DNA of 52,709 bases from a virus (IMGVR_UViG_3300044529_000018:1-52709); one strand, 5' to 3'. Shown: positions 3,549 through 23,676, counted from the stretch's first letter. Notes: a model not told the origin generated them from the letters alone. Made by a program: numbers and translations.

Positions 3549-3549
3549 T

Positions 3550-3795: not shown

Positions 3796-3989
3796 ATACC
3801 GAACAATACCAGCATCACGCCGATCAGATGGATGCCGCGCGCCGGGAATTCAACCGCATCTGGGAAACGGAGATCGTCCCCCATTTGAAGGACACCTGGC
3901 ATTTGCGCCAGAAGGATTTCATGGCCGTCCAGCATTTGTGCTGGGATTTTTTCAGACGGTCCAAGGGGCTGAATACAGTTCCAGATTGA
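3792..3989 (+). CDS. Hypothetical protein
   Basis: ATGA overlap with the upstream gene. Confidence 0.6.
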   Translation: MNTEQYQHHADQMDAARREFNRIWETEIVPHLKDTWHLRQKDFMAVQHLCWDFFRRSKGLNTVPD

Positions 3990-4058
3990 CTTCTGTTTGT
4001 TGTGGTTTCAGATTAGAGACTGTTGCGCATGGAGCGCGGCATTTGACCTGTTACGATT

Positions 4059-4391
4059 ATGACCTATTCTCAAAAATTACGCGACCCTCGTTGGCAAAAA
4101 AAACGGCTCGAAATCTTTACCCGTGACAACTGGACCTGCATTTTCTGCGGGGCCAAGGAAAGAAACCTTCAGTGTCACCATGTCGTCTATCGCAAGCTCG
4201 ACCCATGGGATTATCCTGATGACCTTTATCAGACGGCCTGCGAGTACTGCCATTCCGAGCGCACGGAACTGACGGACAAGATTGTTGATTCGCTTCGTAT
4301 TTCACTGAAGAACATTCCCGCCCAGAGACTTGAAACTGCCGCTGCTCGCCTTATGTCGGAGGCGATGGCTGAGATGGGAAGTGCGCTATGA
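4059..4391 (+). CDS. HNH endonuclease-like protein
   Basis: LRDPRWQKKRLEI..RDNWTCxxC..HH..CxxCH pattern. Confidence 0.8.
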   Translation: MTYSQKLRDPRWQKKRLEIFTRDNWTCIFCGAKERNLQCHHVVYRKLDPWDYPDDLYQTACEYCHSERTELTDKIVDSLRISLKNIPAQRLETAAARLMSEAMAEMGSAL

Positions 4392-6322
4392 GCGATCCGG
4401 CGACGGTCCTTGAAATATCAATGGGGTCTGCCACCAGTGCAGCCATCACCGGAACAATTTCCCCGGAAGCCGCGGTGGAGGGAATTAAAAACCATTTTTG
4501 GGGGGATGAAGTAGCCGCTCTTCGAGGCGCAACCGACCCGGAGGTAAGGGACCGTTTGAAGCGTTCGTTGCCAGCGTTCATCTGGGCCGGAAAGTTCAAG
4601 GAAAGGCGCAGCGCGGCCATTGAGCGGTTTTCCGGCCTTCTGTGCGCCGACATCGACAAGGTGCCTGAACGGATAGCCGAACTGCATGACCTGGCCAGAA
4701 ATGATCCGCACGTCGTCGCCGCCTTCGTGTCGCCATCGGGGACGGGCATCAAGATTGTTTTTCGGGTGCCGGTGCCGGAGGATTTGAAGGGCCATTCTCG
4801 GAATTTCAACGCGGTCAAGGAAAGGCTGGAAACGAATTACAAGGCCCAGGTGGACAAGGCGGCAAGCGATGCGGCGCGGCTCTGTTTTGTGTCTGATGAT
4901 CCGGCCGCGTTCTACAACGCCCAGGCGGTGGCGCTGGCTGTGCCGGCGGATGATCCGTCACCCAAATCAAACGGGAACGGGTATCACCCTGTTATTCCGT
5001 CGTCACGGCGGGATATTGCAACCAAGATCCTTGGCGCCATCGAATGGCAGGACGACGTGACGGGATTCTGCAACTGTCCCGGCGCACACACCCACAGCAC
5101 GCCTACCAAGCCCAAGGACTGCATGTTGAAGCTGGAGGGATCACCGACCATCAAATGCTTCCACGACTCCTGCTCCGGAATCGTGACGGGGGTTAATCAC
5201 GAACTGCGTTCGCAGATTGGAAAGGCTGAATTCAAACCCAGTGCTCCAGCAACACCTGCCCGACGAACCATTGTAAACGAGTACATTCCATCGGAAGAAG
5301 AATCGCAGGAGCATGAACCCAACCTTGTCCTGGAGGTTGTCGATGCCGCCATGTTCATGGCCACGCCGCATCCGGCCCCGCCACAGTTGATCGAGGGCGT
5401 TTTGCATCAGGGTAGCAAGATGAGCATCAGCGGCAACAGCAAGGCGTACAAGACGTGGATTTACGCCGACCTTGCCGTTTCCGTTTCCCATGGACTGCCA
5501 TGGCTGGGATTCAAGACCAATCAGGGCAAGGTGCTTTACCTGAATTTTGAGGTTCAGGACTTCGGGTGGCATGACCGGATAGCCAAACTTTGCGAGGCCA
5601 AGGGTGTCAAAATTAAGCCCAACAAACTCCATTTCTGGAACCTGCGTGGAAAGGCCCGAAGCTTCAGGCAACTGATTCCGATTATTATTGAATTGGCAAA
5701 AAAGGAGGGATATGCCCTGATTGTCATCGACCCCATCTACAAGCTCATGGCCGGCGGTGAAGAAAATTCTGCTGGGGACATCGCTGAAATGCTCAATTCT
5801 TTCGAGCGACTTGCTGTCGAAACTGGAGCCGCCGTCGCCTACGCCCACCATTTCGCCAAGGGCAACGCCTCCGCCAAGGAAGCTATCGACCGCCAATCCG
5901 GTTCTGGCGTATTCGGGCGTGACCCGGATTCCCTCCTGATTTTCACGGCCCATGAGGAAGAAGGCGCTTTTACGGTGGATACCATCCTCAGAAACTTTGC
6001 CCCGATTTCCCAGTTCGTGGTCCGCTGGCACTACCCGATGATGGAGCCGGATGACAATCTTGACCCGTCAAAACTCAAACAGGTTGCCGGCCGGAAGAAG
6101 GAACACGATCCGGCGTTCATTTTGGGCAAAATTGCCAACAATACCGAGGCAAATCCCATCTCCTTGTCCGCCTGGGCCGAACTGACGGGAATGCCCAGAA
6201 CCACCCTCACTGGATATTTGGACGGATTAAGGTCCAAAGGCTGGGTAAAAACAGTCGGTGACGGTATCAGGGCAAAACAGGCAATAACCGCTTCAGGATT
6301 GGCTTTTCTTGATTCAATTTGA
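4388..6322 (+). CDS. Primase-helicase (VirE-N/BT4734-like primase domain + AAA_25/RepA-type helicase + C-terminal HTH)
   Basis: LCADID, FVSPSGTGIK and RLCFVS motifs; Walker A GNSKAYKT; Walker B LIVIDP; HH..K and SGSG motifs. Confidence 0.85.
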   Translation: MSDPATVLEISMGSATSAAITGTISPEAAVEGIKNHFWGDEVAALRGATDPEVRDRLKRSLPAFIWAGKFKERRSAAIERFSGLLCADIDKVPERIAELHDLARNDPHVVAAFVSPSGTGIKIVFRVPVPEDLKGHSRNFNAVKERLETNYKAQVDKAASDAARLCFVSDDPAAFYNAQAVALAVPADDPSPKSNGNGYHPVIPSSRRDIATKILGAIEWQDDVTGFCNCPGAHTHSTPTKPKDCMLKLEGSPTIKCFHDSCSGIVTGVNHELRSQIGKAEFKPSAPATPARRTIVNEYIPSEEESQEHEPNLVLEVVDAAMFMATPHPAPPQLIEGVLHQGSKMSISGNSKAYKTWIYADLAVSVSHGLPWLGFKTNQGKVLYLNFEVQDFGWHDRIAKLCEAKGVKIKPNKLHFWNLRGKARSFRQLIPIIIELAKKEGYALIVIDPIYKLMAGGEENSAGDIAEMLNSFERLAVETGAAVAYAHHFAKGNASAKEAIDRQSGSGVFGRDPDSLLIFTAHEEEGAFTVDTILRNFAPISQFVVRWHYPMMEPDDNLDPSKLKQVAGRKKEHDPAFILGKIANNTEANPISLSAWAELTGMPRTTLTGYLDGLRSKGWVKTVGDGIRAKQAITASGLAFLDSI

Positions 6323-8345: not shown

Positions 8346-8606
8346 ATGAAAAATACCGTCATCATCTACGAAATCAAAAACTGGGGCGACACCTTCCAAG
8401 CCGATGGCTACGACCAGGACGGCTGGGCAAAGAATGACCGCGTCGCGAAGCTCGCGAACATGATAATGATTCTGGACAAAGTTGACCTCGCGACGGCGAG
8501 CCGTCGGGCGAATCAATCAATCAAGGATATGGACGGCGATGTCCAAACTGCCTGCGATGTCATCCGTGCCGAACTCATCGGCCAACAAGGGAAGGCGGCC
8601 AAATGA
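8346..8606 (+). CDS. Hypothetical early protein
   Basis: ATG after an A-rich leader downstream of the promoter. Confidence 0.7.
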   Translation: MKNTVIIYEIKNWGDTFQADGYDQDGWAKNDRVAKLANMIMILDKVDLATASRRANQSIKDMDGDVQTACDVIRAELIGQQGKAAK

Positions 8607-8785
8607 ATCCCGAAGTCACAAAATATATGCGCGAGATGCAGGCTCGCTCCGCCAAGAGCCGGTGGAGCGGGCTGACCGCTGCCAAAAAAAGTGCGGCCAT
8701 GAAAAAACTCCGCGCCAAAGGCAAACAAAAAACCAAGCGCGCACTCCGGCGCTCCAACAACGCAGAGCTGACCGATCACCGCTGA
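8603..8785 (+). CDS. Small basic protein, possibly DNA-binding
   Basis: ATGA overlap; its stop lies inside attC-like site 1. Confidence 0.65.
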   Translation: MNPEVTKYMREMQARSAKSRWSGLTAAKKSAAMKKLRAKGKQKTKRALRRSNNAELTDHR

Positions 8786-8879
8786 CCATGACATCCGCCG
8801 ACACGACAATCTCAATGCCGCCCGCGACTCCCGAAACGGAGAGGCGCGGCGGTGATTCGTGTCCAGCGCTTGGTTCGGC
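8755..8879 (-). repeat. attC-like site 1
   Basis: Minus strand GCCGAAC-CAAGC-GCTGGACACGAATCACCGC ... GCGGTGATCGGTCAGC-TCTGC-GTTGTTG; stem with bulged bases. Confidence 0.85.
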
Positions 8880-9030
8880 GGCACGGTCGGATTCACGGAA
8901 ATCGTCAATGAAATCAGGGCTAAAATAAATCCCGAAAAGGTGTTGACAAATCAAAGATAAAATACGATGCTCTAATCGTTCTGAAAAACAGAACAGCCAC
9001 CGGGGGCGACCCGGAAAACAGAAACAACTG

Positions 9031-9480
9031 ATGAAAAATACAGCAAACAAAACGCCGAGCCTCGCGGCACTCCTTGAGGCAACAAACATCCCAACATCAC
9101 TCGTCCGCGCCGTCGTGCGTCAAATGGGTGGCTGGAAATCGTTCAGTGAATCCGCTCCTGACATTACACGCCACGGAATAGACGGCGGCTTCAACGGTTT
9201 CATCTACAACCGCGACACCGAAGCGTTTGCACGTCGCAATCGTGAGTCAATCGCTCAGATGGCCAGCGAGCAGGCTGCCGACTTCGGGAGCGGCGTAATC
9301 GAAATGATTCGCGGCTTTGGCTGCTTTCGGAACGGCACGAAGCCGACCGATGAGGAAATCGGATCGGCGCTGTATGCCGGACGCGATGCGAAAGACGGCC
9401 TACCGGTATTGAACGCGCTTGCGTGGTATGCCGGCGAAGAAGTCGCCCGCGCCTACTGTGACGCATTCGATCCTCAATGA
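9031..9480 (+). CDS. Hypothetical protein (cassette-borne)
   Basis: Preceded by TTGACA at 8943 and a leader hairpin. Confidence 0.8.
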   Translation: MKNTANKTPSLAALLEATNIPTSLVRAVVRQMGGWKSFSESAPDITRHGIDGGFNGFIYNRDTEAFARRNRESIAQMASEQAADFGSGVIEMIRGFGCFRNGTKPTDEEIGSALYAGRDAKDGLPVLNALAWYAGEEVARAYCDAFDPQ

Positions 9481-9481
9481 T

Positions 9482-9778
9482 ATGCCTGCGCCTGAGAAAA
9501 ATCAAAACGCGGTGAAGGACGAGGCCGATGTCGCCTCGTCCTTCCTGCACCTCCGCGTCGTGCCACGCGATAAAGCCGCCTGGGTCAAAGCCGCGAAGCG
9601 GCGGAAGAAGAAGCTGGCTGAGTGGACGACGGAGACGTTGAACCACGCTGCGCTAGTGCCGCCGAACGACCGGCTGGCCGCAACTCGAAAACCGTATGAA
9701 AAAGAAAAACCTCAAGACAGACAAACGCGCTCCAGAACTGAAACGCGGGAAGCCGGTTCGTGTCCAGCGCGTTGTTAG
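9482..9778 (+). CDS. Ribbon-helix-helix-like DNA-binding protein (cassette-borne)
   Basis: FLHLRVVPRDKAAWVKAA..LAEW beta-helix-helix pattern; C-terminus runs through attC 2. Confidence 0.55.
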   Translation: MPAPEKNQNAVKDEADVASSFLHLRVVPRDKAAWVKAAKRRKKKLAEWTTETLNHAALVPPNDRLAATRKPYEKEKPQDRQTRSRTETREAGSCPARC

Positions 9779-9780
9779 GG
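9661..9780 (-). repeat. attC-like site 2 (partly degenerate)
   Basis: GCCGAAC ... GTGTCCAGCGCGTT-GTTAGGG; the right arm resembles sites 1 and 6. Confidence 0.7.
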
Positions 9781-9977
9781 ATGCGACGACACGACTGCTG
9801 CTCGCTGTCTGTCTAAGAGTTCTGGCCGAAGCGCAAAGGGCCGTTGCTGATGGGAAATGGTGCGAGCGTGGAATGGATATCAAAATCAATCGCATCTTGT
9901 GCCCGCAATACTTTCCAATCCGCCGTTGGCGTCGTTTCAAAACAAACCCGCAAACAAGCACGCCAGAAAAATGTTGA
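9696..9977 (+). CDS. Hypothetical protein starting inside attC 2
   Basis: N-terminus (..VQRVVR) is encoded by the attC arm, as in 12895..13257. Confidence 0.5.
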   Translation: MKKKNLKTDKRAPELKRGKPVRVQRVVRDATTRLLLAVCLRVLAEAQRAVADGKWCERGMDIKINRILCPQYFPIRRWRRFKTNPQTSTPEKC

Positions 9978-10001
9978 CACAATCCGCTAAAGCCGCATAA
10001 T
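9974..10001 (+). promoter_or_regulatory. Sigma70-like promoter
   Basis: TTGACA-16-CATAAT directly upstream of the HTH gene. Confidence 0.6.
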
Positions 10002-10009
10002 ACGCAAAT

Positions 10010-10240
10010 ATGAATCTTCCCACCATACCCACCCGCAAGATTGACAGCACCCGAGCCGGCGCCATGATCCGCGCCGCCCGCACCAAGGCGGAAATCTCCC
10101 TTCGCCGGCTGGCCGTGGCGATGGGAAAATCCGCGCCGTATCTGTGCGACCTGGAACTGGGTCGGCGCAACTGGACGCCCGAGCTGTTTTCATGCGCGGA
10201 GTCCAAACTTCAGGAACTAATTGCAGACAAGCACGCATGA
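10010..10240 (+). CDS. XRE/Cro-like HTH regulator
   Basis: IRAARTKAEISLRRLAVAMGKSAPYLCDLELGRR. Confidence 0.85.
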   Translation: MNLPTIPTRKIDSTRAGAMIRAARTKAEISLRRLAVAMGKSAPYLCDLELGRRNWTPELFSCAESKLQELIADKHA

Positions 10241-10461
10241 AACCGATCAAGCCACTTTCAAACCTGATGACCCAGGAGCAGCTGGACGCCGCGCTTAATG
10301 GTCCGCTCTACGATGACCGGAACAGCATGCCTGACATTTTTGTGTCATACAGCGGCGACGAGCAGGAAAAGCGCCCTTGGACTTATCAAATATATTTCCA
10401 CGCCCAACTTTTATGGACGTGCGACCAGTACATCGAGAACCACCAATGGGGGACCAACTGA
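10237..10461 (+). CDS. Hypothetical protein
   Basis: ATGA overlap with the upstream gene. Confidence 0.6.
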   Translation: MKPIKPLSNLMTQEQLDAALNGPLYDDRNSMPDIFVSYSGDEQEKRPWTYQIYFHAQLLWTCDQYIENHQWGTN

Positions 10462-10464
10462 TTT

Positions 10465-11232
10465 ATGAAAAACGCCAACACCGAACTTTTGCCGGCCGTT
10501 CAGACGCCTCAGGACGTTGCCCGACCCGCTCCAACCTCATTGGACATTCTTGATGCCGCCGTGCGTGGTGGGATCACGTCGGAAAATGTTGCCGTCGTCA
10601 AGGAAATCATCGCCATGCGCCGGGAGGAAGTCGCCTTGGAATCGAAAGGCAAATTCAACCGCTCATTCTTTGAACTGAAGCAAGAAATCAGCGGCATGGA
10701 TTTTTATGCGGACAAAGCCGCCAAGACCGATGGCGGGGCGATTGCTTACCGCTATTGCAGCGAGAAGGAACTAGCCGCCGGATTGGAGCCGGTTTTATTC
10801 CGTCACGGCTTCGCAATGCTGTTTGGGCAGCGCGATGAAGGCGAGCGAACCGTAGCCATCATTACCCTGATTCACAAGGACGGCCACGAGGAAACCCGTG
10901 AATACTCCGTGCGATCTGGCGCAACCAACCGCATGAAGGATGCGACCGCCGCCGACACCGGGGCGACCACCAGCGCGTGGCGGCATCTGGTCATAAAAAT
11001 GTTCGGCCTAAAATCGAGGATTCGAGAGGAGGACGACGCCCGAAATCTTGGCGACGGCGGAAAGATTACAGCCGCCCAAGCCGAGGAACTGGAACGCCGC
11101 GTGCATGAAACTAACAGTAATCTGCCGGCGTTTCTGAAGCTGGCCAAGGCAAACAATTTTGCGGAAATACCCGCCATTCAATACGACATTTTGGACGCAT
11201 TGCTGCGGACAAAGGAAGCGAGGGGACGTTGA
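10465..11232 (+). CDS. erf: ERF-family single-strand annealing protein
   Basis: YRY..L..PVLFRHGF..LIHKDGHEE..GATTSAWR..EDDA pattern; adjacent to an exonuclease. Confidence 0.7.
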   Translation: MKNANTELLPAVQTPQDVARPAPTSLDILDAAVRGGITSENVAVVKEIIAMRREEVALESKGKFNRSFFELKQEISGMDFYADKAAKTDGGAIAYRYCSEKELAAGLEPVLFRHGFAMLFGQRDEGERTVAIITLIHKDGHEETREYSVRSGATNRMKDATAADTGATTSAWRHLVIKMFGLKSRIREEDDARNLGDGGKITAAQAEELERRVHETNSNLPAFLKLAKANNFAEIPAIQYDILDALLRTKEARGR

Positions 11233-11936
11233 AAATCCACGACGTTGCTCAAGGCTCCCAGGAATGGCTCAATCTCCGCGCCGGAGTGCCTACCGCCAGC
11301 GAATTCGACGCGCTTGTTTCGCCTACGTTTGAAATACGAAAAGGCGACATGCCGCGCACCTATTTGCACAAAAAGCTGGCCGAATGGTGGCAGGGAGGCC
11401 CGTTGCTGGAATTCAATAGTTTCGACATGGATCAGGGCCAGATTTTGGAAGAATCCGCAAAGCCGAACTTCACGGTCGAAACGGACATTGAGATCCGCAA
11501 CGTCGGCTTTGTCACCACTGATGACGGCAAAATCGGATGTTCCCCGGACGGTCTGATCGGTGAAAACTCCGGCGTGGAAATCAAATGTCCAAAGATTGAA
11601 ACCCACGTCGGCTATTTGCTGACCGGCGTGCTGCCCAAGCAATACGGCGCCCAGGTTCATGGCTCCATGTTTGTCACAGGCGCCAACAGCTGGCGTTTTT
11701 ATTCGTATCGCCGCCGGATGCCCAGTCTCAACCTTTTGATCGAGCGCGACGACAAGGCGCAGGAGGCTCTCAAAGAGGCGCTTGAAATGTTCCTGGCAGC
11801 ATTCGAGATTGGCCAGAAGCGGCTCTGTGAGATAAACGGAGGTCCGCCAGTTCGACGTGTTGCCTTCAAACCGGGAGACTACACTTCCGAACAACTGGCG
11901 CAGGAGCAGGATAGACCTGATATTCCGACGCCGTAA
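11229..11936 (+). CDS. YqaJ/lambda-exonuclease family protein
   Basis: QGSQEWLNLRAGVPTASEF, GCSPDGL, EIKCP and AQVHGSM motifs. Confidence 0.9.
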   Translation: MKIHDVAQGSQEWLNLRAGVPTASEFDALVSPTFEIRKGDMPRTYLHKKLAEWWQGGPLLEFNSFDMDQGQILEESAKPNFTVETDIEIRNVGFVTTDDGKIGCSPDGLIGENSGVEIKCPKIETHVGYLLTGVLPKQYGAQVHGSMFVTGANSWRFYSYRRRMPSLNLLIERDDKAQEALKEALEMFLAAFEIGQKRLCEINGGPPVRRVAFKPGDYTSEQLAQEQDRPDIPTP

Positions 11937-12053
11937 CGCAGAAGTGATCCACGGCGGGGACAACGAGCGATGAACGTAAAACAGACATTGGAATTGCCGA
12001 CAACGGTGGAGCGCAAGACGCACCCGCCGTTGTGCTCCACTGATTTGTTAGAT
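11931..12053 (-). repeat. attC-like site 3
   Basis: CCGTAAC..AGTGATCCACGGCGGG / CCCGCCGTTGTGCTCCACT..GTTAGAT. Confidence 0.85.
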
Positions 12054-12086
12054 GTCCTGCGGCCCGCAATGTGCGAGCGCGAGGAC

Positions 12087-12199
12087 ATCTAACGCCAAGC
12101 TCACGAATCCCGCCGCCGAATGAACTCAACTCCTCCATCGCCAGAAGCCAACCGCCAACCCGCGAGCGCGGCCGGATTACGTGCAGCGTCGGGTTCGGA
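12087..12199 (-). repeat. attC-like site 4
   Basis: ATCTAAC..GCTCACGAATCC / GGATTACGTGCAGC..GTTCGGA. Confidence 0.88.
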
Positions 12200-12644
12200 T
12201 GTCCGGCCCAAGACGCGAGCAAGTGACAAGAGCGTGCGTGACCGCGCTGTGACGGTGCGACTCACCAACGGGCAAATCGTGGTGGAGAATAAAACCTGCG
12301 GCATCCTGTTCAGCTTCCCCGCCGCGTGCTGGCCAGATGACAGCCTCTCCGCGCACCAGCGGATGTGGGTGAACCGCCTGACGCCTTGGTGGGACATGGA
12401 GCAACCGCAATGGTCGCCAACGTCTCAACGCCTCCGCGACTCGTGCCTCGCGGCGATCCGAAAACTTTTCCCGACAGAGCAACCGCTAAACGACCCATCG
12501 GCAACTGTGGGCCGGGACGCATCGGAAGGTGCGTCTGCTGCTCTGCCGGGAAACCAATCTAAAACCAACGGCGTGCTCCGGCATCCGAACGCCGCGCTCT
12601 GCGACCCGGCACACGGGGACGCAGGCAAACCAAAGACCTTATGA
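12120..12644 (+). CDS. Cassette protein, unknown function
   Basis: Starts in attC 4 and ends in attC 5. Confidence 0.6.
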   Translation: MNSTPPSPEANRQPASAAGLRAASGSDVRPKTRASDKSVRDRAVTVRLTNGQIVVENKTCGILFSFPAACWPDDSLSAHQRMWVNRLTPWWDMEQPQWSPTSQRLRDSCLAAIRKLFPTEQPLNDPSATVGRDASEGASAALPGNQSKTNGVLRHPNAALCDPAHGDAGKPKTL

Positions 12645-12692
12645 GCAAATCCCAAGACGCAATGCCGAGTCCGCAGCAGCAAGTGGTTAGGA
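12584..12692 (-). repeat. attC-like site 5
   Basis: TCCGAAC..GCTCTGCGACCCGGCA / TGCCGAGTCCGCAGCAGC..GTTAGGA. Confidence 0.88.
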
Positions 12693-12898
12693 GCAATGGG
12701 TGGGTAATCCTGCATCCAGACGGAAGGATGGAACTGGACTACTACCATGCGGAACTCAGCTACAACAAATACGGCGGACCTACGCTGTCAAAAGAGCAAT
12801 GGATGGAACGATACCGCCCAGACTGCACGCTTCATCGCGTCAACATCGAAATTGCTCCTAACGCCAAGCTCACAGACGGGGCTGGCACAAACGTATGA
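12641..12898 (+). CDS. Cassette protein, unknown function
   Basis: ATGA-coupled at both ends, inside attC sites. Confidence 0.7.
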   Translation: MSKSQDAMPSPQQQVVRSNGWVILHPDGRMELDYYHAELSYNKYGGPTLSKEQWMERYRPDCTLHRVNIEIAPNAKLTDGAGTNV

Positions 12899-12976
12899 AA
12901 GCAAAACGAACATCCAAATTAAAACGAGCGCGAACAGAACGGGCGAAGCCCCGTTCTGTGCAGCGCGTGGTTAGGG
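12856..12976 (-). repeat. attC-like site 6
   Basis: TCCTAAC..GCTCACAGACGGGGCT / AGCCCCGTTCTGTGCAGC..GTTAGGG. Confidence 0.9.
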
Positions 12977-13257
12977 CGAAGACTCTCGAAGAACTCGTGC
13001 TCGACGCCCATGAGAAAGGCTTCGGCGTAGAAGTGAGCCTCGAACCTGTGCTGCGCGTTGAAGTCACCCGCAACATGGAGGCGGAACTGAGCTGGCTAGT
13101 ATCCAGCGGCCTGTTCGGTGGAAGCATCGCCGAAGCGGCGAGACGCATCCTAGAAGAATGGCTGTGGAACAATAAACAGCGTATCGCGGCACTTCGCCCT
13201 AACGCTCGAACTGAGCCACCGCCGACGGGTGACTCAGGAACTCCAAAGACTCTATGA
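12895..13257 (+). CDS. Cassette protein, possible RHH-like C-terminal domain
   Basis: LVSSGLFGGSIAEAARRIL; ATGA-coupled. Confidence 0.65.
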   Translation: MKAKRTSKLKRARTERAKPRSVQRVVRAKTLEELVLDAHEKGFGVEVSLEPVLRVEVTRNMEAELSWLVSSGLFGGSIAEAARRILEEWLWNNKQRIAALRPNARTEPPPTGDSGTPKTL

Positions 13258-13304
13258 ATGAACTCAAAGCGCAATCGGCGGTTGGCTCAAGTGAGTTGTT
13301 GTGT
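13197..13304 (-). repeat. attC-like site 7
   Basis: CCCTAAC..ACTGAGCCACCGCCGA / TCGGCGGTTGGCTCAAGT..GTTGTGT. Confidence 0.9.
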
Positions 13305-13478
13305 GAGTTGGAACTGGCGCTGGACCACGCCAATAACGCCGCTGAATACTTCCGGAAGACCAACTCTCCGCGCTGGTATGGAATGCTACCGATTCTTGAG
13401 AGCCTCCGGGACATGACTAAAGAGTGCGAAATCCGTGCACACAACGCCAAGCCCACCAATCGGGCGTCTGAAACCTGA
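13254..13478 (+). CDS. Cassette protein, unknown function
   Basis: Starts in attC 7 and ends in attC 8. Confidence 0.65.
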   Translation: MNELKAQSAVGSSELLCELELALDHANNAAEYFRKTNSPRWYGMLPILESLRDMTKECEIRAHNAKPTNRASET

Positions 13479-13569
13479 ACCGTCCAACGAAGCTAAAAAC
13501 TATGAGTGAATCAACAACGGAACAAAACTGTGAGCGTAAGCCCGATTGTGGTGCGGCGCATGGTTCGGC
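13439..13569 (-). repeat. attC-like site 8
   Basis: ACACAAC..GCCCACCAATCGGGC / GCCCGATTGTGGTGCGGC..GTTCGGC. Confidence 0.88.
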
Positions 13570-13804
13570 GTCTTACGAGAAATGCCACTGTGGCGCTGAC
13601 TGCGTAAATCTTGGCGACAACCCAAACGAACCGTGCTGGGGCAGAGTGCAAGCAACCGACGTGATGGAAACGGATGATGACGACATCTGGATTCATCACT
13701 GCTCCGGCCACGAGCCAACGCAGGATATACCACCGAAACCATACAGGCCGGAGACGCCGAACGGTGAGATCAGCCACAGCCACCGTGCGAAAACTTTCGT
13801 ATGA
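13502..13804 (+). CDS. Cassette protein, Cys/His-rich
   Basis: CHCGADC..PCWG..HHCSGH. Confidence 0.65.
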   Translation: MSESTTEQNCERKPDCGAAHGSASYEKCHCGADCVNLGDNPNEPCWGRVQATDVMETDDDDIWIHHCSGHEPTQDIPPKPYRPETPNGEISHSHRAKTFV

Positions 13805-13883
13805 AACCTGCCCGAACAAACCTAAAAATGATGCAGCCAACTCCAAGGGGCAGTGGCTGTTGGTCTGCATCGAATTGTTAGAC
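13756..13883 (-). repeat. attC-like site 9
   Basis: GCCGAAC..GATCAGCCACAGCCAC / GTGGCTGTTGGTCTGCATC..GTTAGAC. Confidence 0.88.
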
Positions 13884-13888
13884 GACCT

Positions 13889-14164
13889 ATGACGAGAGAA
13901 ATCATAATACAACCAGTGCTCAACGGCTATGTGTGTGTCGTTGGATGTCAGCGCGTCGCATTCACTGACAAGCAAACGATGCTGGGGCAACTCAGCGAAT
14001 ACCTCGACAAGCCCGATGAAGTGGAACAACGCTACATCGAACGCGCCGTGAACAAAATGGGGCCAGCCGTGCCGCAACCGTGCAGGCCAACCGACTGCTG
14101 TGAGTCCAGCGCGACCCAGCCGTCCGTAGCGATGGGGCGTGTGGAACAATGCCGGCCACAATAA
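13889..14164 (+). CDS. Cassette protein, unknown function
   Basis: MTREIIIQPVLNGYVCVVGCQ; followed by a hairpin at 14172..14202. Confidence 0.7.
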   Translation: MTREIIIQPVLNGYVCVVGCQRVAFTDKQTMLGQLSEYLDKPDEVEQRYIERAVNKMGPAVPQPCRPTDCCESSATQPSVAMGRVEQCRPQ

Positions 14165-14199
14165 CACAAATGACGACCAGGCTCGCAAGGGGTCTGGTC

Positions 14200-14308
14200 G
14201 TCTAACGACGAACTCAAGCACCGGCGCGAATAACCCATGATGCCCGCCACGCCAACGACGCTTGAACTGCCAGCGACCCCGCCGGTTGCTTGCAGTGATT
14301 TGTTAAGC
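14200..14308 (-). repeat. attC-like site 10
   Basis: GTCTAAC..ACTCAAGCACCGGCG / CGCCGGTTGCTTGCAGT..GTTAAGC. Confidence 0.9.
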
Positions 14309-14316
14309 ATCAATTT

Positions 14317-14868
14317 ATGAAACAGAAACTCGATGAAGTCCGCACTCTGGCCATCAAACTGTTCGAGGCCGGCGAGACGGAAAAACGCAAACAGCCGAAG
14401 CGCAGAAAGAACAAAATGAAAATCACAGAAATCACAATCGGAAGACTCTACAACCTCGGCAGCTACGAGCACGTCCGCTACGAACTGACTGCCGAAGTGC
14501 CACAAGGCGAAAGCGCCGCAACCGCAATCATCGGCATGGAGAAAATCCTCGCCGCACTGTCCCCGAAAACCTCAACGCATAGCCGCGATGAACTCGCCCG
14601 CGAAAAGCGGCAGGTCGAAGAAATGCACCGCAAGCTGTCAGACGAAGGGCCGGACGAGTTCCGCCGATACTACGGGCACAGCTTCGTCGGCACGCCGGAA
14701 GAATACATCGGACGCTGCGAACAGTCGCACGCCGACAACGTGGCACGCCGCGAAGCGTGGGAAGCCAGGAGCGCGAAAGCCCGCAAGCTGCTCGAAGACC
14801 TCGGCGGCGCTGCAAACTTCAAAGATGCCAAACTCGATTGGGAGGATGGCGACGACTTTGATGCTTAA
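14317..14868 (+). CDS. Cassette protein, unknown function (alternative start at MKITEI)
   Basis: Its stop codon is the TAA of core GCTTAAC. Confidence 0.75.
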   Translation: MKQKLDEVRTLAIKLFEAGETEKRKQPKRRKNKMKITEITIGRLYNLGSYEHVRYELTAEVPQGESAATAIIGMEKILAALSPKTSTHSRDELAREKRQVEEMHRKLSDEGPDEFRRYYGHSFVGTPEEYIGRCEQSHADNVARREAWEARSAKARKLLEDLGGAANFKDAKLDWEDGDDFDA

Positions 14869-14984
14869 CATAAAAGCTGAGCCGCCGCCTGTGAGCGGTG
14901 GTGATGCGCAAGGAAAACTCTCAAATGAATAACGACATCCAAACGGACAGCGATAAGGCGGTTGGCTCCGGCGCTTTGTTAGGC
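14863..14984 (-). repeat. attC-like site 11
   Basis: GCTTAAC..GCTGAGCCGCCGCCT / AGGCGGTTGGCTCCGGC..GTTAGGC. Confidence 0.88.
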
Positions 14985-15009
14985 ATCAGCGACATAAAAT
15001 CTAACTAAA

Positions 15010-15282
15010 ATGAAAACCGAAACATCTAACACCGAAATGATCCGGCTGTCTGAACTCAACGCGAACCTCGCCAGCGAGCTAAATCAAAACGACTGGAACG
15101 TGCCAATCGAAGGCAGCCTCACGGCACTGCGGCGAACGCTCTCGCGACTGAATGAGCGCGTCCACTCAAGCTACGACTTCAATGCCGACCCCGACCGCAT
15201 GACGCTCGAAGTGGGTGACGCGCTAAGGTGTAACAAAATAGCTGAGCCAAGCCCGGCCAGCGATGCCCGGAAAACAGACTGA
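15010..15282 (+). CDS. Cassette protein, unknown function
   Basis: Ends in attC 12. Confidence 0.6.
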   Translation: MKTETSNTEMIRLSELNANLASELNQNDWNVPIEGSLTALRRTLSRLNERVHSSYDFNADPDRMTLEVGDALRCNKIAEPSPASDARKTD

Positions 15283-15319
15283 CGTGCGTCCGGGCTTTGG
15301 CTCCGGCGTATGGTTAGGC
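15228..15319 (-). repeat. attC-like site 12
   Basis: GTGTAAC..GCTGAGCCAAGCCCGG / CCGGGCTTTGGCTCCGGC..GTTAGGC. Confidence 0.88.
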
Positions 15320-15343
15320 GACGGTAAAAACGAAAGGACAAAT

Positions 15344-15682
15344 ATGAGTAGATGGTATATGACCGATGAAGAAAAACGCGGCTATGCTGCGCAACAGCAG
15401 CATAGCTACCAAAGCGAACATGACGGCGGGCACGACTACCAGCAGGGCTGGCGCGAAGGCGAGCGCGAGGATAGGCGCGAGCGTGAACGCCAAGAGGAGC
15501 GCCGCCAAGAGCAAGAGGCTGAAGAACGCGCCGAAGAACGGCGTCGGCATGAATCGTATATGCGCTCACAAGAGGAAGAACAGGAACAATACGAGCAAAT
15601 GAAACAGCAACCTGAACCACAGGAACAGCCGGTGGTCGAGTCGCCTAACGACCAAGCTCTGCGACTGGAGAACAACCCATGA
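15344..15682 (+). CDS. Cassette protein, E/R/Q-rich coiled coil
   Basis: AAGGA RBS before ATG 15344; ends in attC 13. Confidence 0.7.
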   Translation: MSRWYMTDEEKRGYAAQQQHSYQSEHDGGHDYQQGWREGEREDRRERERQEERRQEQEAEERAEERRRHESYMRSQEEEQEQYEQMKQQPEPQEQPVVESPNDQALRLENNP

Positions 15683-15766
15683 ACATAGACCGCGCAACAG
15701 CCATTCAAGCATCCCAAGGCCGCGCTGCGGGGCGAACCGAAGGTTCGCAGCAGCGCGTGGTTCGGT
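15643..15766 (-). repeat. attC-like site 13
   Basis: GCCTAAC..GCTCTGCGAC / GTTCGCAGCAGC..GTTCGGT. Confidence 0.82.
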
Positions 15767-15957
15767 GCTGTGCGACATGCGCAGAATGGCTCCCAAACAA
15801 GATGGAATGCAAGCACGTCCCGAATGAAGCTGCACCGCCAGAAGCGTCCTGCGGAGGATGGGTGCGGAGGCGAGAACCCAATCGCCCGTGGGACATGTGG
15901 GCGAATGAGAAAGCACCGAACGTGCCGATGAGCGAACCGCCGACCAAAAATCTATGA
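15679..15957 (+). CDS. Cassette protein, Cys-rich
   Basis: CATCAEW..C..CGGW; ATGA-coupled. Confidence 0.65.
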   Translation: MNIDRATAIQASQGRAAGRTEGSQQRVVRCCATCAEWLPNKMECKHVPNEAAPPEASCGGWVRRREPNRPWDMWANEKAPNVPMSEPPTKNL

Positions 15958-16006
15958 AAAACACTGAAGACGCCAACGGCGGTTCGCTCCATCGGGCTGG
16001 TTCTGC
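15915..16006 (-). repeat. attC-like site 14
   Basis: ACCGAAC..CGATGAGCGAACCGCCG / CGGCGGTTCGCTCCATCG..GTTCTGC. Confidence 0.9.
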
Positions 16007-16286
16007 GCCGGACATGGAACTCGAAAGCTTCAAGCGTGAACGGAATGAAGCTCTGCTCTCGCGCGACGCCATCCGCATCCGCGCAATGGTGCGGAAGTGG
16101 AATAAAATCGAAATGCCAGCCGACCCGAAAACCTTCTGGGGCGCAGTCCACAAGGCGATAACCGGAAACCTCGGCCTGCCCCGCGACTTCCGGCTCAAAT
16201 CAAAAGCGTGGCTGACGGAACACAAGCTCACCAGCTTCGACGACGGCGACCTCGATGAGGCGCAGAACGAGAAAGTTCAGGTATGA
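15954..16286 (+). CDS. Cassette protein, unknown function
   Basis: ATGA-coupled at both ends. Confidence 0.75.
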   Translation: MKNTEDANGGSLHRAGSAPDMELESFKRERNEALLSRDAIRIRAMVRKWNKIEMPADPKTFWGAVHKAITGNLGLPRDFRLKSKAWLTEHKLTSFDDGDLDEAQNEKVQV

Positions 16287-16392
16287 GCGTCAAACCAAAA
16301 TGTGAGCACGGATACACTGACCCGGACGAGTTTTGCCCAGAATGCCCGTACCCAAGTGCGCCAAGCGAATTACCTGCAACGCATGGTTCGGC
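16262..16392 (-). repeat. attC-like site 15
   Basis: GCAGAAC..GTTCAGGTA / TACCTGCAAC..GTTCGGC. Confidence 0.8.
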
Positions 16393-16591
16393 GGCATTGG
16401 ATGCGCTTCTTAAAAAATATCCGGCGAATGCCCGACGGCTGCGAGAGAAGCGAGAATACCTTGCAAACCAAATGGCGGATTGGCGAGCACGCGGCCTCGT
16501 CCAATATGGCGGAAATTCTTGGGCTAATGTGCTCATGCCGCCGAACGCTCCGCATGAGCCGCCGGCGGCGAAAAACCAAGACCATGAATAA
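16283..16591 (+). CDS. Cassette protein, unknown function
   Basis: The N-terminal CxH..CxxC is encoded within the attC loop. Confidence 0.6.
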   Translation: MSVKPKCEHGYTDPDEFCPECPYPSAPSELPATHGSAALDALLKKYPANARRLREKREYLANQMADWRARGLVQYGGNSWANVLMPPNAPHEPPAAKNQDHE

Positions 16592-16649
16592 CACTCTGAC
16601 ATCCGAACTGCCAAGCGTTCCGCCGGTTGGCTCCATGCAGTTGTTGGGC
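16540..16649 (-). repeat. attC-like site 16
   Basis: GCCGAAC..GCATGAGCCGCCGGCGG / CCGCCGGTTGGCTCCATGC..GTTGGGC. Confidence 0.9.
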
Positions 16650-17279
16650 CGCGTTTTGGTGGCGTGCGAATTTTCGGGAATAGTCCGTGACGCCTTCGCT
16701 GCTCGCGGGTGGGATGCGTGGTCGTGTGACATACTGCCAACTGACAAACCCGGCCAACACTTCCAAGGTGACGTGCGCGACATCCTGCATGAAAGCTGGG
16801 ACTTGATGATAGCTCACCCGCCATGCACCTACCTATGCAACTCTGGCGTGCGGTGGCTGACCGAAGATGGTCCAGGTCACAACGGATATATCCGACGCAC
16901 GATGATGAGAGAAGGTGCTGAATTTTTCAAGTCGCTGCTCAATGCCGACATCCCGCATATCGCAATCGAAAACCCAATCCCACACAGATATGCGCTGCAA
17001 ATCATCGGCAGGAAATACGACCAAATCATCCAACCGTGGCAGCACGGTCATGGCGAGACAAAGGCAACCTGCCTCTGGCTGAAAAATCTCCCGAAACTGA
17101 AACCGTCAAACGTCGTGGAAGGACGCGAAGGCAAAGTCTGGAAAATGCCGCCAAGCCCTGACCGATGGAAAGAGCGCAGCAGAACCTACACCGGAATAGC
17201 TGAAGCTATGGCCGACCAGTGGACTCGCGCAACGCGGCCCAACACTGTATTATACGACTCCTCCGCAACTAAAAAATGA
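16584..17279 (+). CDS. Phage DNA cytosine methyltransferase-like protein (cassette-borne)
   Basis: VLVACEFSG, WDLMIAHPPC, IAIENP, IIQPWQHGH and RSRTYTGIAEAMADQW motifs. Confidence 0.8.
   Translation: MNNTLTSELPSVPPVGSMQLLGRVLVACEFSGIVRDAFAARGWDAWSCDILPTDKPGQHFQGDVRDILHESWDLMIAHPPCTYLCNSGVRWLTEDGPGHNGYIRRTMMREGAEFFKSLLNADIPHIAIENPIPHRYALQIIGRKYDQIIQPWQHGHGETKATCLWLKNLPKLKPSNVVEGREGKVWKMPPSPDRWKERSRTYTGIAEAMADQWTRATRPNTVLYDSSATKK
17237..17258 (-). other. attI-like site closing the main array
   Basis: Minus strand GTCGTATAA-TACAGTG-TTGGGC; TAA-N7-TT spacing as in attI1; no attC hairpin follows. Confidence 0.6.
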
Positions 17280-17590
17280 TAAACCATTACAATGCAACGA
17301 TAAGGAAAGAAGCCCGCAAGCGATGGTCATTGAACGCCGTTCGCGCAAAGGCTCGCATAAAAGCCGAACGAATGGCCGCGCCGATACTGGATGAACCTCC
17401 GGGGAAAGTATTCGTCCCAAAGCGAACCCGGCCCGACCTGAAAGTGATCCTGGAACGTAAGGACGGGATGAAAGTTCAATACTCGCTGCGCCTGTTTTAC
17501 GGCAAACTGATTGGCCAGCATCTCCAAATGTCACCCAAGCAGTTTGGCCGTAAGCTAGGAGCCATATTCCAACTGTGGGCAACACCATGA
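17276..17590 (+). CDS. Hypothetical basic protein
   Basis: ATGA overlap with the upstream gene. Confidence 0.6.
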   Translation: MINHYNATIRKEARKRWSLNAVRAKARIKAERMAAPILDEPPGKVFVPKRTRPDLKVILERKDGMKVQYSLRLFYGKLIGQHLQMSPKQFGRKLGAIFQLWATP

Positions 17591-20765: not shown

Positions 20766-21422
20766 TCATTCCTTGGCAAATCGGTAGAACATCTTTGGAT
20801 TCGTGGTGTCCACTTCCAGCATGGTAGTGTGTCCATCCACGATCATGTAATTGGACCAGTTCTTCAGGTTCGGACTGGACTGAATCCAATACACATCGCC
20901 GGGCCTGCCGGGGTGGTTCGTGTCATACTCCCAAGCCAGCGTCATCTTGAAAGCGGGCCTGCAGACAATCGCATTGGTCTGCCATGGCGTAGAGTTTGTG
21001 AAAATCGTCTGGGTGCAGCCATTGGAATTCGTGATGGTATAGCCGCTTGGCGGGCGATGATTGACGACCGCAGCCGGACCAATCGACCGCTCGGCCTTCG
21101 GCGGCATCGGCGGCAACGTCATTGTTTTTGGCACACTATTTGTCATTGCCTTCAGGTTGGCGTCCGTCTGGGCTTTCAACTGCGCATCAGTGTCGCTTCC
21201 CTCGCTCTCGGTGTTCAGCTTGAGCACCCAGTTGTCGTGCCTCACGTTTTTTACGTACCACCAGCCATCATCGGTTGGCCTGCTGACGTTCGGCTGTCCT
21301 CCTCGGTCAACACCCGGAGCCACTTCTGAGAAGTTCGGTATTCCGTGAAACCCAGTTGCAGTGCTGCATCCTGATTCAATCATCAGCACCAATCCCAAAA
21401 CGATGTAGCGCAGGAGGGTCAT
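20766..21422 (-). CDS. Lipoprotein, apparent chimera (truncated phosphatase-like N-terminus + ..YWIQSSPNLKNW..FYR C-terminal domain)
   Basis: Signal ending ESGC; GIPNFSEVAPGVDRGGQP but no CX5R catalytic motif. Confidence 0.5.
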   Translation of the reverse strand: MTLLRYIVLGLVLMIESGCSTATGFHGIPNFSEVAPGVDRGGQPNVSRPTDDGWWYVKNVRHDNWVLKLNTESEGSDTDAQLKAQTDANLKAMTNSVPKTMTLPPMPPKAERSIGPAAVVNHRPPSGYTITNSNGCTQTIFTNSTPWQTNAIVCRPAFKMTLAWEYDTNHPGRPGDVYWIQSSPNLKNWSNYMIVDGHTTMLEVDTTNPKMFYRFAKE

Positions 21423-23272
21423 GGAAAAACACCGCTGTACTGGATTTTGTTGGTTATCAGAACACCGCCCACCGAAAGGGTGATATATAAATTTGTACAC
21501 CCCGGCCCTCCGACGCTAAGTACTCCGTAACCAACAAAAGTTGGAGCGGCCAGAGTGTTTGTAGCTATGGCCAGGCTTCCATTCGCAACAAAATTCGATG
21601 CCACAACCGTTCCGGTAGTGGGGGCGGCATCGAAGTAGGTCTGCCCGGCTGGTACAATTGACATTTGAATCTCGTGGTTTTCCAAACCGACAAACTCAAA
21701 GCTTGGAGCCGTTACTGTGCTGGAACCGTACCATCTCCATATCTTATAATGAGGGTCTTGTCTTAGCCCATAACTGCCATACGACGGCTCCAATGTACCG
21801 CTCCCACCACCAATCGTGAATGAATTGGTAAACCCACTCACATGGCTTGGAAAATTAGCAGTTCCCAGCACCGTAAGTTTGTTGAAGAAATCCCCAAACA
21901 ACGGGTCGGTCCCATTACCAGCAGCCGCAAAGTCATGGAAAGAAAAACTTGCGTTCGGCGGAATACAGAAAGGCGGAACATATCCACCAGAGAACACTGG
22001 AACTTCACCACCATTGCAACTGAAGGAACCATTGTAAACCCTGGATTGATCGTCAAAGTCAATAATCGTAGCTCCATTAGCATGGCCCTCACAACACACA
22101 TTTAAATCAACCGATGCGTTCGCTATTCCTGGGGTTATTCCTATATTCGTGCTATTTCTGAACATGTGTCCAAAAACCTTATCGTCGCCACCACCGTAAC
22201 CTACATAAATACCAATGCTGTTGAAGCCACAAGTTACATCTTCTATTTTTAGATGCTCGTTCATCACCACTCCTTTGTTATATCCATATATTTCGGAGTT
22301 TTGCATTACGTTCCCACCGTTATTTTGGCGCACAGGGAACATCACCCCAACAGCATTATATGGACTCGGTGTAATCGTGTTGAAAAATCCAGGGCGGAAG
22401 TCCACTCCAAGTTCACAGTGGTCAATAAACGTCTGACCTCCATATTCTGACCAAATAGCATTAAGTCTAGGCCAGCATGGTTGCAGCAACGCAATGTTTA
22501 TTATGTACAGGTTGACAGATGAGAACTGGCTGACCGGTCCACTTTGACCAAAGATTGAATTATTAGTGGTGTTCAGGGGCGTAGTTGGAACGCAGAAAAT
22601 GACCGAACCAGACCTGACTGGACTCATATTGTTAAAGAACGTGCTATAAGACTGGCGCATTGGTCCTGCACCATAGAATGTTATAGACGAAATCGCATTT
22701 GTTGATGCTTGGTTTGCATTTGGCATCGAAATCATGCTCCACTGATTAGTGCCGGTGTGAATAAGAGGACCGACTAACATGTAGGGACGTGATGAGTTGC
22801 TTAAAACGACTATCGTATTAAAGTTAGTTGAGCAGTAATTGCTGATACTCTGGAAGTTTGTGAGGCTGCTTGTCCCAAAGTTTGCCATTGCCGACTGCGT
22901 TGCGTCAAAAGTAGCTGAATTTGAGATTCCGACATATTGAGAACTTATATAGTCGGTTATCATGCTTAGAACATAGTTTGTATTTGCGGTACTAGTGTAA
23001 ATAAGCATCCACTTTCCCACATCAGATGCCACAAATGGACCACTTGGAGAATAGATTTGGGCTTGTCCGTTTGTACACGAAATGTCGTACAACGTCACCA
23101 TGTCCGCTTTGGCTCCAAACTGCTCAGGTGTTATCGTTGAAACAAGGCTATTCGCCACCTTCGCCGTGTCGGCGTTGCCAGTGAGCGGCCCGTTAAAGTT
23201 TCCCCAGTACGAAATTGCTCCAAACACCGGCATGGAGCACGTTAGAAGTAATGCCATCAGTAGTTTTTTCAT
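21419..23272 (-). CDS. Tailspike-like beta-helix (pectin-lyase-fold) protein
   Basis: ITPEQFGAKAD motif; N/S/T/G-rich; AT-rich relative to the genome; N-terminal signal peptide. Confidence 0.65.
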   Translation of the reverse strand: MKKLLMALLLTCSMPVFGAISYWGNFNGPLTGNADTAKVANSLVSTITPEQFGAKADMVTLYDISCTNGQAQIYSPSGPFVASDVGKWMLIYTSTANTNYVLSMITDYISSQYVGISNSATFDATQSAMANFGTSSLTNFQSISNYCSTNFNTIVVLSNSSRPYMLVGPLIHTGTNQWSMISMPNANQASTNAISSITFYGAGPMRQSYSTFFNNMSPVRSGSVIFCVPTTPLNTTNNSIFGQSGPVSQFSSVNLYIINIALLQPCWPRLNAIWSEYGGQTFIDHCELGVDFRPGFFNTITPSPYNAVGVMFPVRQNNGGNVMQNSEIYGYNKGVVMNEHLKIEDVTCGFNSIGIYVGYGGGDDKVFGHMFRNSTNIGITPGIANASVDLNVCCEGHANGATIIDFDDQSRVYNGSFSCNGGEVPVFSGGYVPPFCIPPNASFSFHDFAAAGNGTDPLFGDFFNKLTVLGTANFPSHVSGFTNSFTIGGGSGTLEPSYGSYGLRQDPHYKIWRWYGSSTVTAPSFEFVGLENHEIQMSIVPAGQTYFDAAPTTGTVVASNFVANGSLAIATNTLAAPTFVGYGVLSVGGPGCTNLYITLSVGGVLITNKIQYSGVFP

Positions 23273-23276
23273 AAAA

Positions 23277-23516: not shown

Positions 23517-23517
23517 A

Positions 23518-23673: not shown

Positions 23674-23676
23674 AGG

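Follow-up and report, generated by a model that had tools for sequence, protein, structure and literature searches.

Genes that cross the core of attC-like sites in a single frame in a probable integron-type cassette array of a phage

We describe a region of a viral genome in which genes read through the core of attC-like recombination sites in one and the same frame. The DNA in question, hereafter the window, is the whole IMG/VR virus entry IMGVR_UViG_3300044529_000018, 52,709 bases long (CheckV completeness 93%). Its + strand carries 16 attC-like hairpin sites between 8.6 and 17.3 kb, to which one terminal half-site and a small minus-strand set are added. In our view the region is likely to be an integron-type cassette array without an integrase of its own (a cluster of attC sites lacking integron-integrases, CALIN), housed in a phage genome, i.e. 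a variant of the integron. As for its organisation, we lean somewhat towards an inside-out integron: the genes would lie on the recombined strand and form one operon pointing towards attI/intI, each attC would play a triple role, and a selected asparagine convention at the crossover would keep all permutations of cassettes valid and translationally coupled.

Sites in the window were found by scanning for AAC...GTT pairs with complementary arms. At 12 of the 16 (sites 1, 2, 5, 6, 7, 8, 9 and 12-16) a long upstream open reading frame (ORF) reads AAC as asparagine (Asn); at three others a TAA overlapping the core ends the ORF (sites 3, 11 and, for a 40-aa ORF, 4), and at site 10 the upstream ORF stops before the core. 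The methyltransferase ORF, reading PNTVL at 17241, and the LuxR/GerE ORF, reading PNEKA, bring the Asn-frame read-throughs to 14. A preliminary description of this DNA had listed 14 core-crossing ORFs, all with AAC as an Asn codon, and this holds for each of them, down to every listed peptide; no ORF of the window crosses a core in another frame. Assuming independent sites, the chance of finding 14 out of 14 in one of three frames is ~2 × 10−7. The same 16 sites provide an internal control: relative to the ATG in the loop, their GTT is spread 4/6/6 over the three frames.

The Asn-frame stop falls on the next start, as ATGA, at nine of the 16 sites. It lies two codons past the ATG at sites 11 and 16 (ATGAATAA) and at most 25 nt from the start at sites 1, 8, 10 and 12; site 2 alone has no Asn-frame stop near the start, and its frame continues to a TAG in the 3' arm. 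The seven ATGA sites pointed out earlier (12641, 12895, 13254, 13801, 15679, 15954 and 16283) do carry a TGA in the Asn frame, and the same is true of the ATGA at 11970 and 12120, which had been described as retained even though the upstream ORF had already ended.

Relatives of the array were reached by two routes. L002, a 75-kb viral contig of 100% completeness, was found through the exonuclease of the window, and L019 through the pattern of the arms. Both hold attC-like arrays followed by an integron integrase on the same strand, and an alignment of the two integrases retrieved 57 viral loci. Scores against TIGR02249 (cut-off 265 bits) were 265.3 for L019, 281.6 for L126, 353.3 for L144 and, just below the cut-off, 247.2 for L002, whose integrase can be aligned from end to end, IntI-specific insert included, with the solved structure of VchIntIA, 2A3V (E 1.6 × 10−40). 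A FastTree phylogeny of 111 rows groups 28 viral integrases and 10 from genome contigs in a single clade (SH-like support 99), and for integrases from other phyla identity to the query alignment does not exceed 41%. Nine of the 10 genome contigs in this clade are Verrucomicrobiota metagenome-assembled genomes (MAGs), the other being a Polyangiaceae MAG; the hosts are for this reason likely Verrucomicrobiota, an assignment that rests on MAG binning. The array of the window probably belongs to a phage-borne integron family of Verrucomicrobiota phages. A CALIN is defined by at least two attC sites and no intI in the replicon, and this is what the window contains; an intI adjoining the array, as in a complete integron, is found in the relatives L019, L002, L126 and L144 and not in the window.

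To cover the relatives we used a detector without ORF information, requiring a hairpin score of at least 13 and a flank complementarity of at least 7/8 to another site. It cannot tell strands apart, and in the window it missed sites 15 and 16 and mis-set AAC elsewhere (13819 for 13760, 14211 for 14204). The resulting set comprises 132 sites upstream of intI in 29 viral records (the window and 28 of the 57 loci), after dropping L128 and L146 (copies of L112 and L144), sites downstream of intI, and three window matches outside 8-17 kb; 27 loci, some of which extend little or not at all upstream of intI, yielded no site. Upstream ORFs were taken into account when they had at least 40 open codons and an end between −2 and +130 nt of AAC. 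The upstream ORF reads through the core in the Asn frame at 74 sites and in another frame at 7, ends on a TAA overlapping the core at 27 and on a TGA ending on the first A of AAC at 2; 8 sites are ambiguous and 14 have no ORF. The Asn frame is therefore used by 74 of 81 read-through ORFs against an expected one third (p = 1 × 10−27, kinship ignored), so that the frame bias proposed for the window extends to homologous phage arrays, where random frame use was not seen. Among cores without a preceding T, 47 are crossed in the Asn frame vs 4 in another, which means that the block posed by TAA is not the cause of the bias. On the other side of the sites, the frames in which downstream ORFs leave GTT are evenly spread, 27/36/29 (chi-square p = 0.48; 40 unclear). 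A bacterial control scored on the intI strand (40 sites from 12 loci, IntI at most 41% identical) gave 2 Asn, 4 other-frame, 2 TAA, 6 ambiguous and 26 sites with no ORF.

The structure of the sites is that of attC. AAC and GTT ends (inverse core and core, partly complementary) are present in 16 out of 16, and the R boxes pair in DNA folds. The sites fold as DNA hairpins in which the paired R box forms the base of the stem and is followed by ~5 unpaired bases per side. Going upward, the folds and the arm alignments give 3-4 pairs, an extra base in the 3' arm, ~5 pairs and a second extra base in the 3' arm, and the hairpins are topped by a longer stem with a variable loop. Over the 132 sites, the longer arm is the 3' arm in 101, the 5' arm in 22, and the two are equal in 9. 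AAC-to-GTT spacing in the window is 81-120 nt, within the known length range of attC, 57-141 bp (Nivina 2016). The extra bases read as C and T in the arm alignment, the first mostly as C; the extrahelical bases of attC are given as G and T in the same source, so that base identity here differs in part from the classical one. We also found a cassette signature: reverse-complementing the 8 bases past GTT gives the 8 bases that precede the next AAC. Agreement reaches 7/8 or more in 13 of 16 adjacent pairs (the pair formed by site 16 and the terminal core at 17241 included) vs 3 of 256 non-adjacent pairs. Such complementarity of the end flanks is a mark of circularisable integron cassettes.

The boundary of the cassettes was located through duplications, homology breaks and assembly branches. 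L019/L096 contains two copies of a 254-nt unit that differ at 1 position; each extends exactly from AAC to AAC, the sequence outside differs on both sides, and the second copy directly adjoins an attI-like junction located 35 nt ahead of the intI ATG. A duplicated cassette of L126 (368 nt, 100% identity) likewise runs from AAC to AAC. When intI-attI platforms are compared (L115/L116 and L104/L109), homology starts exactly at AAC, with different cassettes upstream. In the window, contig branch points from three peat metagenomes (the runs holding this DNA are peat metagenomes) fall at 8759, 13763, 13448 and 14210, at or at most 4 bases after AAC cores; each is a single contig, the one near site 8 coming from run X2 and the one at 13763 from run X1. 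Metagenome contigs over the window showed no joint that skips a cassette. Because duplicated cassettes, intI-platform homology and branch points all break there, we place the boundary in the AAC of the 5' arm of the coding strand. AAC-to-AAC duplicates and platform homology in the relatives thereby bear out the earlier proposal, in which the arm past AAC is part of the neighbouring cassette, along with its stop and the start that follows.

This location determines the polarity of the array. In classical attC sites, the recombined bottom strand has its AAC triplet in R' and its extrahelical bases on the opposite arm (Nivina et al. 2016), and the crossover is written G↓TT on the top strand (Qi et al. 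2023, PMC9892861), which corresponds to AA↓C on the bottom strand. The core crossed by the phage genes is thus the crossover box of the recombined strand (classical R', bottom strand), and the genes run opposite to those of classical cassettes. Bacterial controls have the same arm polarity relative to intI as the phages (6/8 sites in L192, 10/11 in L219), and their longest open frames lie on the strand opposite to the phage layout (7/7 in L192, 8/10 in L219). The phage clade, then, retains the classical intI-attC polarity, with its genes on the opposite strand pointing to intI. Two known layouts were tried and rejected. In the classical cassette organisation the gene is on the top strand and points away from intI; here AAC is in the 5' arm of the coding strand and the extra bases are in the 3' arm. 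In the inverted integron-integrase group intI is flipped relative to attC; here the arm asymmetry is that of the controls and the arrays lie upstream of intI.

A classical polarity, with crossover at G↓TT of the 3' arm, would mean that an N-terminal leader and not a C-terminal tail is swapped. We judge this highly improbable. It would be the textbook layout for top-strand genes, yet both duplicated cassettes and both intI-platform comparisons break at AAC, the extra bases are on the arm opposite the coding-strand AAC, and the uniform GTT frames (27/36/29) would leave two thirds of random joins out of frame. A few homology blocks do end at GTT (L110/L112, and loose ends at 8875 and 13876 in run X3), but these differ at the other flank too and favour neither model.

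Does the + strand encode the genes of the array at all? Open frames of 198-281 aa on the minus strand could be taken for the real genes of a classical array, with the + strand ORFs as spurious, and a vote by longest open frame is split (6 vs 7 in the window; 55 vs 30 in the phage clade), a measure too noisy to weigh. A log-odds score of codon usage, trained on 11 long window genes, was highest among the six frames for the actual frame in 17 of 17 + strand array ORFs, vs 0 of 10 long minus-strand ORFs. The minus-strand ORFs, moreover, run over several attC sites, and the ORFs of the + strand (or its equivalent) include a methyltransferase, a GerE protein and, in the L019 array, an ORF (4143-4634) with an apparent HNH motif, read from the translation. 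The + strand is the coding strand of the array, and we give the minus-strand alternative next to no credence.

It is also extremely improbable, to our mind, that the hairpins are solely translation or processing signals between cistrons and not recombination sites. End-to-end complementarity of flanks spans whole cassettes, relatives contain exact cassette duplicates, and in relatives integron integrases with attI-like junctions adjoin the arrays. An Rfam search gave no family at the gathering score in the whole window, and none at E up to 1 over 8500-17400. What such a reading has in its favour is that the start codon sits in the loop, that translation of the upstream ORF through the 5' arm would melt the hairpin, and that contigs from an RNA library span two junctions. 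An RNA role in addition to recombination is conceivable.

If the boundary is in AAC, the stop and the C-terminal tail of a gene that reads through it come, as far as the sequences tell, from the neighbouring cassette. These borrowed tails measure 0-36 aa (median 11). The same cassette gene should then be found with different tails in relatives, as had been suggested, and we did find such cases in L019/L096, L119 and L097. For instance, the duplicate ORF of L019 ends in ...LSPN plus 18 aa in one copy and in ...LSPN plus 2 aa in the other. The product of window ORF 12895-13257 and its L119 homologue (63% identical) agree up to ...AALRPN and then differ, and window ORF 8603-8785 diverges from two L097 ORFs right after Asn. 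Regarding starts, 59 of 87 assigned starts are in the loop; 25 of these 59 are ATGA overlaps, and in 20 the Asn-frame stop precedes the start by 1-30 nt. Loop ATGs are also unevenly phased with respect to AAC (9/17/33; p = 5 × 10−4). On our reading, the borrowed tails would be translated and the stop/start overlaps would couple translation.

We propose the following mechanism. A cassette would begin with what remains of the 5' arm, continue through the loop, which contains the gene's own ATG, the 3' arm and the gene body, and finish with a short flank whose last letters are AA. IntI would recombine the folded coding strand at AA↓C of the 5' arm; for this phage, it would presumably be supplied in trans by a co-resident relative or by the host. 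The split codon is always Asn because the C is invariant. Each gene would either stop on its own TAA or TGA in the core, or read Asn and borrow a tail and a stop from the next cassette or from attI, and the borrowed stop would usually lie on, or just before, the next ATG. With stops placed in this way, any order of cassettes would terminate properly, and termination-reinitiation would probably couple translation along one early operon. The triple role of attC would then be that of recombination site, of tail and stop for the upstream gene, and of start region and N-terminal leader for its own gene. In the interpretation given by the preliminary description, the structural part is supported by our data and the functional part is plausible.

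The frame rule could, instead, be a by-product of how cassettes are born, or of the common descent of an attC-plus-flank module, without any selection for coupling; the tails would be neutral extensions and the ATGA overlaps a reflection of compact phage operons. ATGA overlaps are indeed common in phage operons generally. The 5' arms are alike, so that tails resemble one another, and the presence of Pro-Asn before the crossover in 32 of the 74 Asn-frame cases suggests a sequence-constrained R box. Against this account, the gene bodies before AAC are unrelated, and still they enter the core in one frame and leave GTT in three. An unused stop also persists: where the upstream gene stops in the core, an Asn-frame stop is still present at the ATG or at most 30 nt before it in 8 of 10 sites, and window sites 3 and 4 show the same. 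The attI junctions point in the same direction, with stops two codons past Asn in L019 (AAC AAT GAT TAG) and L126 (AAC AAT GTT TAG), and with the Asn frame of L002 continuing to a TAA one base before the intI ATG. We hold the by-product explanation to be unlikely and lean somewhat towards the selected Asn convention of an inside-out integron.

Several observations weigh against our main explanation of the region as an integron-type array with its crossover at AA↓C. Flank complementarity is absent in pairs 2-3 and 11-12 and reaches only 5/8 in pair 7-8. Some attC modules, 96-97% identical, are shared by cassettes with both flanks different, and in run X3 one cassette body is found again, at 96%, between two attCs that both differ from its neighbours in the window; neither the shared modules nor the recurring body is accounted for by a single crossover at AA↓C alone. 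A search of the whole 52.7-kb record with PF00589 found no tyrosine recombinase. In the larger set there are the seven other-frame read-throughs, at least one of which comes from a mis-set AAC, and the eight ambiguous sites, and the p-values given above are rough, since sites of one array are not fully independent. Most genes of the phage lack Shine-Dalgarno motifs, so that the absence of a motif at loop ATGs is no evidence for coupling. Present-day mobility of the window cassettes would be suggested by the relatives and by branch points of single contigs. Finally, run X4, the RNA library, gives partial cover, and its junction-spanning contigs carry no strand information and possibly derive from DNA.

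The array is in two parts on the + strand, sites 1-2 and then sites 3-16 plus the terminal core, separated by a helix-turn-helix gene, an Erf-like annealing protein and a RecE/YqaJ-like exonuclease. The first part (8603-9977) contains ORFs 8603-8785, 9031-9480 (DUF7222), 9482-9778 and 9696-9977. Site 1 (8751-8883; AAC 8759, GTT 8873) is 96% identical to L096 18300-18406, and site 2 (9657-9784; AAC 9665, GTT 9774) has a 5' flank that complements the 3' flank of site 1 at 8/8 positions. The backbone genes that follow (10465-11936, +) are the annealing protein at 10465-11232 and the exonuclease at 11229-11936, whose TAA stop overlaps the core of site 3 (11927-12057; AAC 11935, GTT 12047). Site 4 (12083-12203; AAC 12091, GTT 12193) is located 44 nt from site 3.

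The chain of cassette ORFs extends on the + strand from 12120 to 17279. Its first half is made of ORFs 12120-12644, 12641-12898, 12895-13257, 13254-13478, 13502-13804, 13889-14164 and 14317-14868. Along it we find site 5 (12580-12696; AAC 12588, GTT 12686; ATGA 12641), site 6 (12852-12980; AAC 12860, GTT 12970; ATGA 12895) and site 7 (13193-13308; AAC 13201, GTT 13298; ATGA 13254). At site 8 (13435-13573; AAC 13443, GTT 13563) the Asn-frame stop is at 13476-13478 and the next ATG at 13502. Site 9 (13752-13887; AAC 13760, GTT 13877; ATGA 13801) has a 26-aa leader ORF that ends in the 3' arm, and at site 10 (14196-14312; AAC 14204, GTT 14302) a leader ORF, 14237-14320, terminates in the ATGA at 14317. 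The TAA of the upstream ORF lies in the core of site 11 (14859-14988; AAC 14867, GTT 14978).

The second half comprises ORFs 15010-15282, 15263/15344-15682, 15679-15957, 15954-16286, 16283-16591 and 16584-17279, the last being a DNA methyltransferase (phrog_757, E 4 × 10−61); a Pfam search gave no family for the remaining 12 of the 13 cassette ORFs of the main array. Site 12 (15224-15323; AAC 15232, GTT 15313) has a 5' flank that is complementary to site 11 at only 4/8 positions. It is followed by site 13 (15639-15770; AAC 15647, GTT 15760; ATGA 15679), site 14 (15911-16010; AAC 15919, GTT 16000; ATGA 15954), site 15 (16258-16396; AAC 16266, GTT 16386; ATGA 16283) and site 16 (16536-16653; AAC 16544, GTT 16643), with an ATG at 16584 and an Asn-frame TAA at 16589-16591. 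In the terminal half-site (17233-17279, AAC 17241), the flank is complementary to the 3' flank of site 16 at 8/8 positions, and the Asn-frame tail leads to an ATGA at 17276. No 3' arm was found for the half-site at 17241, which bears no clear likeness to the attI-like junctions of L019, L126, L104 and L115.

On the minus strand, an attC-like site at 31729-31841 (AAC 31833-31831, GTT 31741-31739) is 86% identical to L117 2933-3027. The ORF upstream of it, 32134-31832, terminates with a TAA in the core. The LuxR/GerE cassette ORF (31506-31793, minus strand; PF00196, E 1 × 10−13) starts in the loop of this site, reads the core AAC at 31535-31533 as Asn, and has a tail that terminates in ATGA.

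Within the main array, 12047-12093 resembles an 'empty' cassette: the GTT of site 3 and the AAC of site 4 are 44 nt apart, and a 22-nt inverted repeat is formed by its ends. One contig from the source run has a branch point within it, at 12053. Over 14680-15013, the summed depth of contigs in run X1 rises to 152, vs ~27 on either side, which suggests that site 11 or its surroundings are common to other, more abundant elements in the same sample.

Beyond the array, most large ORFs of the phage match no Pfam or PHROG family, and no tRNA was found in the 52,709-base record. The late region (21419-35674, minus strand) holds glycosyltransferase-like, GH130-like, DUF5672 and pectin-lyase-like ORFs. 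A 301-nt direct repeat (98.7% identity) is present at 1459-1759 and 52409-52709, its copies coming after the stops of the 5'-open ORF 1-1488 and of the 1363-aa ORF 48315-52406; it may represent the same downstream gene behind two tail-fibre-like genes, or an assembly overlap.

The exact 15-nt arm pattern occurs in 90 loci of viral contigs, about the level expected by chance, and a hidden Markov model of the arms matches only L019, L082 and L024/L066. A blastn comparison of L019, L082 and L024 with the window gave no match at E 1 × 10−5, and only 3 cassette ORFs of the window have homologues in other loci. Against GenBank phages, blastn of 11200-17300 returned only weak methyltransferase matches, in 11 records that each cover at most 7% of the query.

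Some relatives show variations of their own. L144 and L145 have the Asn-frame layout (4/7 and 3/3 sites) and are placed, by FastTree only, outside the main phage/Verrucomicrobiota IntI clade. In L130, four attC-like sites (11124-12815) lie downstream, not upstream, of intI, and the IntI is 38% identical to the query. In L002, 1.3 kb upstream of the integron integrase, there is another tyrosine recombinase (3518-4463; PF00589, 53.9 bits), which according to NCBIfam is not of the IntI type. On the reverse strand of L019, at 2468-2735 (L019rc), the flank of an AAC core matches the preceding GTT flank and the GTT partner comes ~270 nt later, with ~80 ORF codons in between; either a single attC of great length or a fusion of two cassettes may be behind this.

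The familiar integron is a promoter-driven array whose cassettes are self-contained. In the organisation favoured here, the recombination site itself would be coding on both arms, and one frame rule at the crossover would keep any cassette order translatable. This would show that site-specific shuffling is able to coexist with the packed, overlapping gene layout of phages, and would provide a natural precedent for recombination sites within coding sequence. With a clade of at least 28 viral contigs that carry integron integrases, the record of phage integrons is no longer limited to a handful. The cargo, uncharacterised early genes together with a methyltransferase and a regulator, makes a role in host takeover or anti-defence plausible. 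A frame-locked Pro-Asn end followed by attC also offers a bioinformatic handle on how cassettes are born. If true, the inside-out reading would represent a natural, selected solution for gene shuffling without intergenic space, and the counterpart of engineered coding attC sites.

The array shares with classical integrons its RYYYAAC/GTTRRRY-type cores, the unpaired spacer, the extra bases opposite the AAC of the recombined strand, the variable loop and the complementary end flanks of cassettes. In the relatives, intI and an attI junction adjoin the array in classical polarity, and the attI-proximal cassette is duplicated. Unlike in classical integrons, the phage genes are on the recombined strand towards intI, starts are inside the attC loop, the crossover is read through in one frame, and the complementary flank beyond the triplet is 8 nt long instead of 4.

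CALINs have been reported in phages, 17 of them in 21 phages, with a few sites each (Qi et al. 2023, PMC9892861). Like these, the window has a cluster of attC sites without an integrase in a phage, and a methyltransferase among its cassettes; the passages of that paper on these CALINs do not mention bottom-strand genes, crossover-spanning ORFs or a frame rule. Our literature search, which was not exhaustive, brought up no account of cassette genes written on the recombined strand, nor of any frame rule at the crossover. The closest parallel in translation is attI1 with its ORF-11/ORF-18, where a frame crosses the crossover, the stop comes from the inserted cassette, and termination by the next start couples translation, according to PMC8876359. 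There, as that source presents it, a single short attI leader in the classical direction is concerned, whereas here it is every cassette gene, every attC and attI, in the opposite direction. As in the inverted integron-integrase group, e.g. in Treponema, where intI is flipped relative to attC (Cury et al. 2016, as described in PMC4889954), intI and the cassette genes share their direction; unlike in that group, the array is located upstream of intI, and the flip concerns the genes inside their cassettes, not intI. Finally, attC sites embedded in protein-coding sequence have been engineered (Nivina et al. 2020, PMC7439510), and in both cases attC hairpins also encode peptide. The sites described here differ from those engineered ones, as that paper describes them, in being natural and in having a 5' arm that is coding in one frame and a 3' arm that is coding in any of the three.

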